From Acinetobacter sp. AS5 (GTDB taxonomy: Bacteria > Pseudomonadota > Gammaproteobacteria > Pseudomonadales > Moraxellaceae), in contig NZ_JARDAL010000010.1 of NCBI RefSeq assembly GCF_048957595.1, forward strand, positions 15,150-39,149: a DNA stretch of 24,000 bases, read 5' to 3'. The translations under genes and the position numbers were made by a program. Shown piece after piece: positions 15,069 through 16,586 of this stretch (within the stretch, counting starts at the first letter, position 1; each line of letters begins with the position of its first letter). A model generated the notes under the pieces. That model was not told the DNA's origin. It searched no databases and worked only from the letters and a program-made list of their open reading frames with translations.

Positions 15069-16586
15069 TTATGGATAACTGATAGAGGCTGGTGTGACTG
15101 ATTTGACAGAGGTTGGAATTGTATTGCCTCCACCTTTGGCTTTTCCTAACGTCACATTCACATTCCCTCCCATTTGGGTGGGGTCTTGAGTCATATCGGT
15201 TGTTTGGTCGCCAGTTACTAGAATATTACCAAAAACATTAATATTGGCATTACCGACGAATTTTCCTGATGCTGACCCTGTGCCTCCAGCACCTCTAGAC
15301 CCTATCATATTTCCGTATAGGAACATTGGTGCCCCTGGAGATGAGTTAAATTCGAATCCTGTATCGGTTAATAAGAGTATATTTGCTAAGTTGGCAGGAT
15401 ATGAATCCATGTCTTTAATAAATTGACTTTTATTGGCGTTAAAATAGGCCATTGTGCTATAGCCCACGGGCTTGCCAGCAGTACTAAGGTTATCGCGCAG
15501 AATTGCATCATGTGGTTTGCAGTATTGTGTTGGATAATTGTTTGCTGGGCAGACTTTATTTAAACGAGCTAGAATATTTGCATCATTCGCTTCTAACAGA
15601 TAGTGATATGGAGCATATGCATGGAATTCTGCACCGTGCTGATTACCGTTAGGCTGGACAGATTTAATTGTTCCTGTTGCAATAATAGTATTAATTATAT
15701 CATCATTCCGAGTGTATGCGTTGCTCGCTATTTGATCATTCTTTTTTTTCATCGTTAAATTGACATCGCCATCAAACCAAGTAATCCCCGCTAGTTGTGC
15801 AGCTGAACTATCAAACGTCCACACACCGCGGCTCAATGACACACCGCTTGGGCATGTGATTGATGTTTTTGTTGTAATATTGCTTGTACCTGATAAGTTA
15901 TTTTTAGAGCAGATAGCAGCTCCAGCCGGACTTTTTTCAAAAATATAATTGGCATCTGATTTCAAACTCATTGCATCAGGAATATTTATTCCGCCTAAAT
16001 ATGTAGTAACCGTAATATTTCTGACAGTTCCACCTCCTGTAATTGTACCAGCATTAGCACCACCAACGGCAATTGATACATTGTCTCCTACTATTCCACT
16101 AAATTCTGCACTTCCGAAAACCTTCAATCCACTCGCAAAGATCGACCCTGTTACAGTGCTCGTTGTTACCGTATCGGTGACTTTAAACAAGGCGCGTAAA
16201 ATGGCTTTGGCACCGCCACTTTCGCCTATAATATCAAAGCAATAATTCCCCATTCCAGAGGGGCAGCTTGGGGATTTGTTGTAGTTAATGACTGTACCTG
16301 TCGTAGACGTAACCGTGCCTGTGGTGGTTGCGGCTATTTTCGCCATATCCATATTTGAACTTTTTAAAAACTCAGATAAGGCTTGATAACCGACCATAGT
16401 CTGCATTTGAGCTTGAGTTTGTGCATGCGTGGTTACCGCACTCGATTGCATGGTCTTTACGGAAGCCACGTAGCCAATCGTTGCAACGGTTAGAGTCATT
16501 CCCACTAGCAAAATAAATAGCAAAGATGTGATGCCAGACTGTCGTCGTTTCATATTGATTTTTTTATGAATACCCTTTGTTTTCAT
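15069..16586 (-). CDS. PilX-like minor pilin-associated protein with about 370-aa C-terminal extension (candidate pilus tip protein)
   Basis: 505 aa with RBS AAGGAGA. The N-terminus RRQSGITSLLFILLVGMTLTVATIGYV...MQSS is PilX_N-like with no Glu5. A PilX-type core ends around CPSGMGNYCFDIIGESGGAKAILRALFKV. After it comes a Gly/Thr/Asn/Ser-rich region with further Cys pairs. Confidence 0.6.
   Translation of the reverse strand: MKTKGIHKKINMKRRQSGITSLLFILLVGMTLTVATIGYVASVKTMQSSAVTTHAQTQAQMQTMVGYQALSEFLKSSNMDMAKIAATTTGTVTSTTGTVINYNKSPSCPSGMGNYCFDIIGESGGAKAILRALFKVTDTVTTSTVTGSIFASGLKVFGSAEFSGIVGDNVSIAVGGANAGTITGGGTVRNITVTTYLGGINIPDAMSLKSDANYIFEKSPAGAAICSKNNLSGTSNITTKTSITCPSGVSLSRGVWTFDSSAAQLAGITWFDGDVNLTMKKKNDQIASNAYTRNDDIINTIIATGTIKSVQPNGNQHGAEFHAYAPYHYLLEANDANILARLNKVCPANNYPTQYCKPHDAILRDNLSTAGKPVGYSTMAYFNANKSQFIKDMDSYPANLANILLLTDTGFEFNSSPGAPMFLYGNMIGSRGAGGTGSASGKFVGNANINVFGNILVTGDQTTDMTQDPTQMGGNVNVTLGKAKGGGNTIPTSVKSVTPASISYP

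Follow-up and report, generated by a model that had tools for sequence, protein, structure and literature searches.

The window, i.e. the whole stretch of 24,000 nucleotides from Acinetobacter sp. AS5 analyzed here, contains a cassette of five tightly packed genes that overlap or are separated by gaps of 17 nt (Table 1). All five ORFs are intact, and they are identical in at least five independent assemblies. The fifth and last gene, located on the minus strand, encodes a protein of 505 amino acids, as reported in a preliminary description of this DNA.

Table 1. Positions of the cassette genes, of segments of the 505-aa protein and of further features in the window.
Feature	Positions	Strand	Basis
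Major pilin gene pilA, intact	4326..4832	+	PF00114 (Pilin), PF07963
Intrinsic-terminator-like hairpin with A and U runs on its flanks	15022..15064	-	RNA fold
ComZ-like giant minor pilin, 505 aa	15069..16586 (including stop codon)	-	ORF with ATG start
Residues 489-505, long terminal β-strand	15072..15122	-	DSSP strand 489-503
Residues 148-488, predicted β-solenoid head, hypervariable swappable module	15123..16145	-	Solenoid-only AF2 model
Residues 77-147, pilin head with four β-strands and C108-C116 pair	16146..16358	-	DSSP and co-evolution
Residues 1-76, 18-residue leader and hydrophobic α1 helix	16359..16586	-	Sequence and AF2 helices 19-37, 43-76
220-aa minor pilin, PilW/GspJ position, Glu5	16604..17266	-	N_methyl
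145-aa minor pilin, PilV/GspI position, Glu5	17284..17721	-	N_methyl and conserved gene order
152-aa minor pilin, FimU/GspH position, Glu5	17690..18148	-	N_methyl
PilE/ComE-type pilin, first gene of the cassette	18124..18666	-	PF07963 (N_methyl), PF16732 (ComP_DUS)
Canonical pilV pseudogene, two fragments	18845..19253	+	Six-frame translation
Pseudogene fragment of an IS transposase (DDE_Tnp_1), interrupted by internal stops	19320..19600	-	PF01609, E 4.4e-10
Canonical comF C-terminal fragment, residues 116-153	19991..20122	+	tblastn, E 7.5e-6

The four upstream genes carry N_methyl prepilin motifs with Glu5 (G/xxxxE). The PilE/ComE-type pilin has PDB sequence matches to major pilins and shares 34% identity with the canonical ComE. 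For the 152-aa pilin we found weak N-terminal matches of the GspH and PpdA type as well as similarity to the canonical FimU (tblastn). The top NCBIfam match of the 220-aa pilin, PRK10557, covers only its N-terminus, and the BLASTP match to the canonical PilW is weak and likewise N-terminal; this pilin is kept in 24/24 related loci with sequence at that position. The order of the five genes is kept in all 24 of the 24 related genome loci, including those from Burkholderiales and Rhodocyclales. Profiles of the giant pilin from Acinetobacter and from Beta-proteobacteria align with an hhalign probability of 100 (E 3e-44), and the family comprises 348 clusters at 50% identity.

The ATG of the 505-aa ORF (position 16586) is preceded at a distance of 7 nt by a Shine-Dalgarno sequence, AAGGAG. 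M12 was considered as the true start, which would leave a leader of 7 residues, and was discarded because a Shine-Dalgarno sequence precedes the ATG at 16586 only. Directly 3' of the stop codon, the hairpin with its U-run (dG = -19.9 kcal/mol, z = -4.7; none of 200 shuffles reached this stability) separates the cassette from the convergent ispH gene. An Rfam scan of the whole window returned zero RNA families.

The ispH-rpsP interval and the second cassette locus

In A. junii and eight other places this interval has the canonical order ispH-fimU-pilV-pilW-pilX-pilY1-comE-comF-rpsP. In the window, the canonical cluster is replaced by the cassette together with fragments of pilV and comF and an IS pseudogene. 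The first pilV fragment corresponds to residues 1-65 and is interrupted in frame by a stop at codon 7, the second to residues 103-141; they match PF22150 (Tt1218-like, E 1.7e-7) and, in tblastn searches, the PilV proteins of A. junii and of locus L045. The comF fragment lies directly upstream of rpsP. A search with the exact RpsP sequence matched the same organism only. With the canonical Acinetobacter proteins as tblastn queries, homologues of PilW, PilX and PilY1 were not detected anywhere in the window; the queries included two Acinetobacter PilY1 proteins. The ORF is, as described previously, the last gene of a cassette without PilY1. The related proposal that the cassette substitutes for PilY1 gains real backing from synteny, since it occupies the very place that holds fimU-pilVWX-pilY1-comEF in other Acinetobacter. 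Three relatives (loci L004, L019 and L022) likewise have the cassette in place of the canonical cluster. Two small ORFs in L004 were considered as C-terminal remnants of PilY1 and discarded, as neither Pfam nor tblastn agreed.

In most Acinetobacter species the cassette is found at another locus, between a desaturase gene and HAD/DUF1615 genes. This conserved desaturase-side location, seen in A. indicus, A. terrae, A. terrestris and others, would fit an accessory minor-pilin set on which the main pilus does not depend, forming either a conditional alternative tip or a pseudopilus unrelated to PilA. In a survey of the genus, canonical T4aP components were nearly ubiquitous (PMC10374093), so that at that locus the cassette probably represents a second set. 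For the window, such an explanation implies that the position beside a decayed canonical cluster reflects a simple loss of T4P function in the lineage. The IS debris and pseudogenes, which indicate ongoing decay at this locus, and an IS that interrupts the cassette itself at locus L003 point in the same direction. However, the cassette ORFs of the window are intact and identical across assemblies, and both pglL and pilA are intact as well, the latter at a position relative to ispH that matches other Acinetobacter. Furthermore, in each of four different arrangements of the ispH locus a degraded canonical cluster accompanies the cassette, which suggests redundancy after acquisition and not random decay. 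We consider an accessory set with simple loss of function distinctly unlikely. At the desaturase-side locus, however, the cassette may coexist with a canonical PilY1 cluster and would then be an accessory and not a substitute set.

Sequence and predicted fold of the 505-aa protein

The leader of the protein (...RRQSG/ITSLLF) closes with Q-S-G after 18 residues. Position +5 is occupied by Leu23 instead of Glu. Leu23, Q16 and G18 reach a conservation of at least 90% among 39 homologues, in which H54-Q60, within a THAQTQAQ motif in residues 1-76, are invariant. Y504 in the terminal strand is invariant among homologues, too. The six cysteines are located at 108/116, 226/245 and 346/356. The same 39 homologues show no variation at C226, C346 and C356 and at least 90% conservation at C245; C226-C245 and C346-C356 are candidate disulfides inside the solenoid. 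All strings that had been quoted from the protein are present, namely CPSGMGNYCFDIIGESGGAKAILRALFKV (residues 108-136), GSIFASGLKVFGSAEFSGIVGDNVSIAVGG, GNANINVFGNILVTGDQ, GGNVNVTLG, CSKNN...ITC and CPANNYPTQYC, and the reported richness in G, T, N and S amounts to 39.9% of residues 138-505. A reading of the conserved GAGGTGSASGKF loop as a Walker-A motif was rejected, as neither the spacing nor the next residue fits.

Pfam and NCBIfam scans of the ORF yielded no family; the only hit, DUF6507 (E 0.012), was taken as noise. Searches of PDB sequences with phmmer and with a profile (hmmsearch) gave no match at E values up to 10.

The full-length AF2 model (pLDDT 81.9, pTM 0.75) shows a pilin helix followed by four strands, a β-solenoid of ~340 residues and a final strand. 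DSSP assigns the strands of the pilin head to residues 89-93, 99-104, 114-123 and 126-144. The solenoid contains a helical excursion at residues ~326-402 and was predicted with higher scores when modeled alone (pLDDT 90.8, pTM 0.91). Strand 489-503 presumably rejoins the pilin sheet.

A comparison of close relatives divides the protein in the same way. Residues 1-147 and 489-505 keep 76-97% identity, whereas residues 148-488 keep only 38-49%. In relatives with a solenoid at this lower level, the pilin module is 83-97% identical; in relatives with a common N-terminal module and a different solenoid, residues 489-505 are 76-94% identical. Even within one species frame the identity of the solenoids is 28-35%, and positions 15174-15760 gave no nucleotide alignment with the related locus L019. 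Judged from these sequences, the solenoid acts like a head that diverges fast and can be exchanged, which fits a surface-exposed, ligand-binding tip or one exposed to phages.

Since residues 1-147 and 489-505 evolve together and residues 148-488 apart, the solenoid is better described as an insertion before the last strand of the pilin than as a C-terminal fusion. The preliminary description had proposed a PilX anchor fused to a β-helix. A β-solenoid is indeed predicted, but as an insertion, and the last 17 residues belong with the N-terminal module and not with the Gly/Thr/Asn-rich region.

We compared the full-length model with 350,542 PDB chains using Foldseek. The only matches with E < 1e-3 were chains of ComZ, the best one (PDB-entry 6QVI) with an E value of 6.4e-7 and a probability of 1.0. 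The global TM-score is low (0.21), and the structural alignment contains 10-11% identical residues. ComZ also ranked first for the solenoid alone, in line with expectation but below significance (E 0.11, TMq 0.29), followed by ice-binding proteins (E 0.4-3, likewise below significance). The match to ComZ rests on the overall architecture, since the solenoid by itself is not significantly similar, and common descent is unproven. In BFVD the solenoid-only model had a weak match to DUF3494 (E 0.03). No PilY1 propeller, bactofilin or autotransporter was matched by this model in the PDB or BFVD.

Further weak neighbors of the solenoid were pectate lyases, HpmA, hemolysin TPS domains and tailspikes. 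Together with the ice-binding proteins and with the DUF342/FapA-like names given to some Beta-proteobacterial relatives, they could indicate a membrane-anchored or secreted β-helix protein that merely lies beside pilin genes; it might be an enzyme acting on polysaccharides, an adhesin of the ice-binding-like type or a scaffold resembling bactofilin. None of these structural matches is significant, however, and the predicted fold of the full-length protein matches only a pilin. The prepilin-like leader and helix, the conservation of the N- and C-terminal pilin module independently of the solenoid, and the invariable fifth place of the gene in the same pilin cassette in two proteobacterial classes also argue against a non-pilus protein, which we regard as very improbable.

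Comparison with known tip subunits

The absence of Glu5 is characteristic of the subunit that comes first and sits at the very tip; GspK, PilX and ComZ are examples. GspK of the type II secretion system and CofB of type IVb pili are tip subunits of this kind, in which an extra domain is added to the pilin fold, and they cap a GspI/J/K-like trimer. The 505-aa protein resembles them in lacking Glu5 and in the predicted extra domain, and it would cap a similar trimer. In GspK the insertion is α-helical and located between strands 3 and 4 (PMC6561018), whereas a β-solenoid is predicted here. The Pfam and NCBIfam scans did not detect T2SSK, and there are no T2SS genes in the window.

In Thermus thermophilus HB27, ComZ has been proposed as a tip pilin (PDB 6QVI; Salleh et al. 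2019, PMC6561018). Its position 5 is Gly, DNA and PilA2 are its binding partners, and its fold is closest to ice-binding-type β-helices (PMC6561018). The two proteins are alike in size (505 residues here, 498-518 in the 6QVI chains) and in a hydrophobic N-terminal helix without Glu5. By prediction, the 505-aa protein also shares with ComZ a small GspK-like pilin fold with a big β-solenoid before the last strand and a long loop or helix excursion inside the solenoid; the order of elements predicted here equals the published topology of ComZ. Ice-binding-type helices are neighbors of our solenoid as well, though weak ones below significance. In both cases the gene follows several small minor pilins at a locus without PilY1, the Thermus cluster being arranged as pilA1-pilA2-pilA3-comZ-pilA4 (PMC6561018). 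Unlike ComZ, to which it has no detectable sequence similarity, the 505-aa protein has three Cys pairs and a hypervariable, exchangeable solenoid, and its host is a proteobacterium that would normally use PilY1.

Cyanobacterial PilX contains a triangular, ice-binding-like β-solenoid between the penultimate and the last pilin strand (bioRxiv 10.64898/2026.02.12.705559). Solenoid PilX proteins occur in core minor-pilin sets and have been proposed to replace the PilY1 'tip plug' where PilY1 is absent (bioRxiv 10.64898/2026.02.12.705559). Judged by this description, the 505-aa protein is similar, as a pilin fold with an inserted β-solenoid in a minor-pilin set, but in its case the architecture occurs in Gamma- and Beta-proteobacteria. 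Pfam and NCBIfam provided no link to Hps or PilX families. The solenoid-pilin architecture and the idea of a PilY1 substitute have thus already been published for Thermus and cyanobacteria; the proteobacterial variant is new. Neither of these precedents, ComZ and the cyanobacterial solenoid PilX, appears in the preliminary description.

With the canonical FimU-PilVWX-PilY1(ComC)-PilE(ComE/F) set of Pseudomonas and Acinetobacter, the cassette shares the address from ispH to rpsP, similar small-pilin positions and the presumed job of priming PilA and forming the tip. In Acinetobacter the canonical minor-pilin cluster is itself a cassette that is exchanged in evolution (PMC10374093). In contrast to the canonical set, the cassette contains no PilY1 (neither PF05567 nor a VWA domain), its similarity to canonical pilins is confined to the N-terminal helix, and the PilE-type pilin is encoded first and not last. 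No propeller was found among the Foldseek matches, either. At the K-position, a 505-aa protein with a solenoid stands against a canonical PilX of 247-278 aa with PilX_N, so that the canonical Acinetobacter protein, contrary to what had been assumed, does not end near residue 137. Nor is the N-terminal part a PilX by sequence: PF14341 (PilX_N) gave no match at E up to 1, and membership was rejected after an hhalign comparison of the family profile with A. junii PilX came back empty (probability 0.1). What holds of the proposed PilX anchor is the PilX/GspK position of the gene, after the pilin in the PilW position, and the missing Glu5. Overall, the interpretation given in the preliminary description is partly supported.

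Proposed role of the cassette

Based on gene order and modeling, the 505-aa ORF probably encodes a ComZ-type 'giant' tip minor pilin, and the cassette probably fills the role of FimU-PilVWX and PilY1. The protein would carry a class-III signal/leader and a hydrophobic α1 helix without Glu5, and its small pilin head would be interrupted before the last β-strand by a disulfide-braced β-solenoid of ~340 residues. Together with the four co-transcribed pilins in the PilE, FimU, PilV and PilW positions it may assemble into a priming complex on the inner-membrane platform, beneath which PilA would then be polymerized. This would place the solenoid on the fiber axis as a cap or plug with an exposed binding surface. 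In this lineage the cassette would do the work of FimU-PilVWX and PilY1 (and of ComE/F), the genes for which are decayed at this very locus. The head is best read as supplying the bulk otherwise given by PilX plus PilY1. The protein would be expressed, would sit at the tip and may function as an adhesin; the ligand of the head may be DNA, as for ComZ, or a surface or cells.

A narrower form of this explanation sees the protein as a DNA receptor at the tip that serves natural transformation, similar to ComZ, with the cassette building or priming competence pili and not adhesive or motility pili. The only significant structural neighbor binds DNA and PilA2, the cassette layout resembles the comZ cluster, and the first gene contains a ComP_DUS domain. 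The presence of the cassette at a second locus in many Acinetobacter is compatible with a specialized set, and the competence pili of cyanobacteria have a solenoid-PilX set dedicated to them (bioRxiv 10.64898/2026.02.12.705559). PF16732, however, also matches the canonical ComE and ComF and is therefore not diagnostic. Moreover, the solenoid is net neutral (23 K+R vs 23 D+E in residues 148-488), and a generic DNA-binding surface would not be expected to be hypervariable within one species frame, as the solenoid is. The Lys residues of ComZ cannot be mapped without sequence similarity. A DNA receptor is possible but on the whole unlikely in our view.

In proteobacterial type IVa pili, PilY1/PilC is regarded as the universal tip adhesin, plug and mechanosensor, and according to a genus-wide survey T4aP components were neither gained nor lost in Acinetobacter (PMC10374093). 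The locus described here is a natural counter-example: in an A. lwoffii-like lineage, an intact pilA is found next to the decayed remains of the pilV...comF cluster and to an alternative cassette that is complete. With the ComZ-type tip pilin proposed above, the solution of a solenoid pilin instead of PilY1 is extended from Thermus and cyanobacteria to Gamma- and Beta-proteobacteria, and a family that at present has no Pfam or NCBIfam model receives a name. Acinetobacter, with its good genetics, offers a tractable test of which functions of PilY1 (priming, plugging, adhesion, DNA uptake, surface sensing) can be provided by a solenoid head. That the head varies so extremely, and within the bounds of one module, matters for phages that target pili and for the specificity of adhesion. 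More tentatively, and with considerable doubt, tip pilins with a solenoid head might form a family that is widespread in proteobacteria and so far unannotated, in which the cassette can fully replace FimU-PilVWX-PilY1 in priming PilA pili and the solenoid is a modular, horizontally exchanged 'warhead' that sets tip specificity and allows strains to escape from tip-binding phages. If this is true, the specificity of the tip for a surface, a cell or DNA would be set by the solenoid, as the pilus analogue of tip swapping in phage tail fibers.

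The ispH–rpsP locus and its cassette

In A. junii the interval reads ispH-fimU-pilV-pilW-pilX-pilY1-comE-comF-rpsP and encodes a PilY1 of 1308 residues with VWA and PilY1 domains. This canonical organisation was found in six further places and on the contig with the closest IspH (97% identity). One MAG (locus L044) has a canonical cluster with a fragmented pilY1 (13892–17746; four ORFs of 102, 486, 411 and 276 residues), reflecting either a pseudogene or assembly errors. In the window, the equivalent interval (14981–20271) contains a five-gene cassette on the opposite strand together with canonical remnants. 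The first pilV fragment hits PF22150, as does canonical PilV. No trace of pilW, pilX or pilY1 was detected in this interval, in agreement with the preliminary description of a cassette lacking PilY1 and ending with the 505-residue gene. The canonical cluster has been replaced by the cassette at its locus. For coordinates see the table.

Features of the window
Feature	Position	Strand	Remarks
505-residue ORF	15069–16586	-	ATG start
Fourth cassette pilin gene	16604–17266	-	prepilin N-methylation motif
Third cassette pilin gene	17284–17721	-	prepilin N-methylation motif
Second cassette pilin gene	17690–18148	-	prepilin N-methylation motif
First cassette pilin gene	18124–18666	-	N-methylation motif, ComP_DUS domain
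pilV fragment 1	18845–19045		stop at codon 7
pilV fragment 2	19143–19253		remnant of canonical pilV
DDE transposase pseudogene	about 19320–19600		in ispH–rpsP interval
comF remnant	19991–20122		last 38 codons
ispH	14012–14980
Low-GC stretch	4001–6100	+	GC 31–32%
pilA	4326–4832
ORF	4902–5264		no significant family
ORF	5292–6026		no significant family
pglL-type gene	6115–7749		O-oligosaccharyltransferase
Bacterioferritin gene	7800–8264		Ferritin
TnpB ORF	8496–9557	+	353 residues; OrfB_IS605/Cas12f-like
Lipase-like ORF	22955–23923	-	322 residues; secreted

At least five independent assemblies carry exactly the arrangement of the window. Three related loci, L019 (from an 'A. lwoffii' MAG), L004 and L022, likewise combine the cassette at the ispH locus with a degraded canonical cluster and vary in the surviving remnants, L022 also in orientation. 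In L004, the cassette is separated from the retained comE/comF by two ORFs of 112 and 125 residues (7191–7864, minus strand), which neither match a Pfam family nor resemble canonical PilY1. The cassette of A. indicus, A. terrae, A. terrestris and others is located between fatty-acid desaturase and HAD/DUF1615 genes.

The cassette genes, all on one strand, overlap or are spaced by 17 nt. The 505-residue ORF was confirmed as previously delimited, including all peptide strings quoted from it, and its ATG is preceded by a Shine-Dalgarno sequence (AAGGAG, 7 nt upstream); internal Met12 has none comparable. The 88 bp gap to the convergent ispH contains a stable hairpin 3' of the stop codon, flanked by A and U runs (dG -19.9 kcal/mol, z -4.7). 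All four upstream pilins carry G↓xxxxE. The 505-residue protein reads RRQSG↓ITSLLF, with Leu at +5 and no Glu5.

The pilA and PglL-type genes are intact, about 10 kb from the cassette locus. pilA lies in a low-GC stretch (most of the window has about 42–47%) followed by the pglL-type gene. Relatives hold different genes between the two (sulfatase, Wzy_C, FimB), and the region looks like a variable pilin-glycosylation island. The TnpB ORF sits between the bacterioferritin gene and a small Fer2_BFD-type gene; since 8357–9575 gave no nucleotide alignment to L019, this region looks like a lineage-specific insertion. At the position of the lipase-like ORF, relatives carry 3–4 Abhydrolase_1/Lip_C paralogues in tandem, along with a lipase chaperone, so lipase copy number differs between strains.

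Predicted fold of the 505-residue protein

Pfam and NCBIfam scans matched no model, and PDB sequences yielded no match with either the single sequence or the family profile. The full-length AlphaFold2 model, built from a 39-sequence alignment (pLDDT 81.9, pTM 0.75), comprises helices (residues 19–76), four strands between residues 89 and 144, a long series of short strands (148–324 and 403–481) with a helical excursion (326–402), and a single long terminal strand (489–503). Residues 138–505 consist to 40% of Gly, Thr, Asn and Ser. The six cysteines are at 108/116, 226/245 and 346/356.

A Foldseek search of the PDB with this model returned only three hits with E <1e-3, all chains of Thermus thermophilus ComZ (6QVI; best E 6.4e-7, probability 1.0), albeit with low global TM-scores (0.21) and 10–11% identity; the next hits had E-values of 2.5 or worse. 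The solenoid alone (residues 145–488) was modeled very confidently (pLDDT 90.8, pTM 0.91) but had no significant PDB neighbour. ComZ again ranked first, below threshold (E 0.11, TMq 0.29), followed by ice-binding/antifreeze β-helices, HpmA, tailspikes and pectate lyases; in a viral library the best hit was a DUF3494 (ice-binding type) protein (E 0.03). Ice-binding proteins are also nearest to the ComZ solenoid according to its authors (PMC6561018), which makes this ranking coherent, though no proof. ComZ, encoded in the order pilA1-pilA2-pilA3-comZ-pilA4, has Gly at position 5 (PMC6561018) where our protein has Leu, neither being Glu, and its structural elements follow the same order as in our model. 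The predicted architecture is ComZ-like; this does not imply common ancestry.

Comparison by module with five close relatives (P0004, P0006, P0013, P0018 and P0027) gave identities of 78–97% for residues 1–76, 66–90% for residues 77–147 and 76–94% for the last 17 residues, but only 38–49% for residues 148–488. Relative P0002 shows the opposite pattern (pilin module 44–54%, solenoid segments 61–84%). The evolutionary borders thus coincide with the predicted domain borders, and the last strand moves with the N-terminal pilin module. The β-helix-like domain proposed earlier is predicted as a solenoid, but these sequence comparisons support an insertion in the predicted pilin fold rather than a C-terminal fusion.

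Variability and distribution of the cassette

Between the window and L019, RimM (100%), Gmk (99%), the PilE-type pilin (98%) and the FimU-position pilin (97%) are nearly identical, followed by the PilW-position (89%) and PilV-position (83%) pilins and the 505-residue protein (61%); 15174–15760 gave no nucleotide alignment at all. In three A. indicus-type loci, flanking genes are ≥98% identical, cassette proteins only 28–64%, and the large protein has 454, 490 or 552 residues. From these comparisons the cassette is an allelic island with the solenoid as its most variable part, consistent with an element that is exposed on the surface and faces a ligand or phages.

IspH shares only 92.5% identity with its L019 counterpart, against the values for the neighbouring Gmk and for RimM, which suggests that the tract of recombination by which the cassette arrived or was varied reaches into ispH. 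The A. indicus-type locus L003 has two Transposase_mut IS copies (7338–8546 and 11593–12801) in or beside the cassette: one breaks the FimU-position gene, the other follows the large gene. Its neighbouring HAD gene shares only 59% identity with those of sister genomes, so this cassette may have been inactivated or exchanged recently.

A word-index search retrieved 78 relatives (321–564 residues), all unnamed or 'hypothetical' and without a Pfam domain; named sources were all Acinetobacter (indicus, towneri, terrae, terrestris, albensis and several further species). Conserved in the 39-sequence alignment are KQxG and SSLLFIVLVG in leader and helix, GSIFAGGL, ANYIF, GVLWFDG, YGN and AGGTGxASGKF in the solenoid, and, invariantly, C226, C346, C356 and a Tyr one residue before the C-terminus. 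THAQTQAQ (residues 52–60, about 16407–16433, minus strand), in the C-terminal half of α1, is invariant in the Acinetobacter family and possibly a candidate partner-pilin interface.

An exhaustive profile search yielded 348 clusters at 50% identity (E up to 1e-3), 29 of them the core family; most of the other matches listed have 620–885 residues, and these clusters are unannotated except for an occasional 'DUF342'. By tblastn, cassette loci occur in Acinetobacter/Moraxellaceae and in Variovorax, Rhodoferax, Comamonas, Azoarcus, Tepidimonas and other Burkholderiales or Rhodocyclales, with identical five-gene order in every locus recovered. The architecture, whose distribution the preliminary description had raised, thus spans Gamma- and Beta-proteobacteria. 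The Acinetobacter and Beta-proteobacterial profiles align over pilin module and solenoid (probability 100%, E 3e-44), the latter with a few hundred additional residues in the solenoid region. THAQTQAQ is kept there too, and HAQTQAQ[MI] alone fetched these relatives from the genome collection. In the Beta-proteobacterial loci sampled, housekeeping genes flank the cassette and pilus machinery is absent from the vicinity, so the cassette must use machinery encoded elsewhere.

Proposed role

Predicted architecture, absence of Glu5, operon, conserved five-gene set and modular hypervariability are established for the protein and its cassette. As to function, we propose that the protein would start a GspH/I/J/K-like priming complex as its first subunit and would cap the PilA fibre, its solenoid serving as the bulky plug and binding surface provided elsewhere by PilX plus PilY1. 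The same role has been proposed for ComZ, argued to bind PilA2 and DNA at the pilus tip (PMC6561018), and for the solenoid PilX of cyanobacteria without PilY1. The ligand may be DNA, a surface or a cell; the solenoid's neutral charge and its hypervariability slightly disfavour a generic DNA receptor.

Proteins of this kind have been described before: ComZ (2019, PMC6561018) and cyanobacterial PilX (2026 preprint, bioRxiv 10.64898/2026.02.12.705559). Full-text literature searches found no paper that describes, for Acinetobacter or any other Proteobacteria, a PilX of ComZ-like or solenoid type, and a genus-wide Acinetobacter study describes T4aP components without gain or loss (PMC10374093). What is new, and of interest for pilus biologists, is a proteobacterial family, unrelated in sequence to ComZ, that has the same predicted architecture and is seen at this locus replacing the PilY1 cluster.
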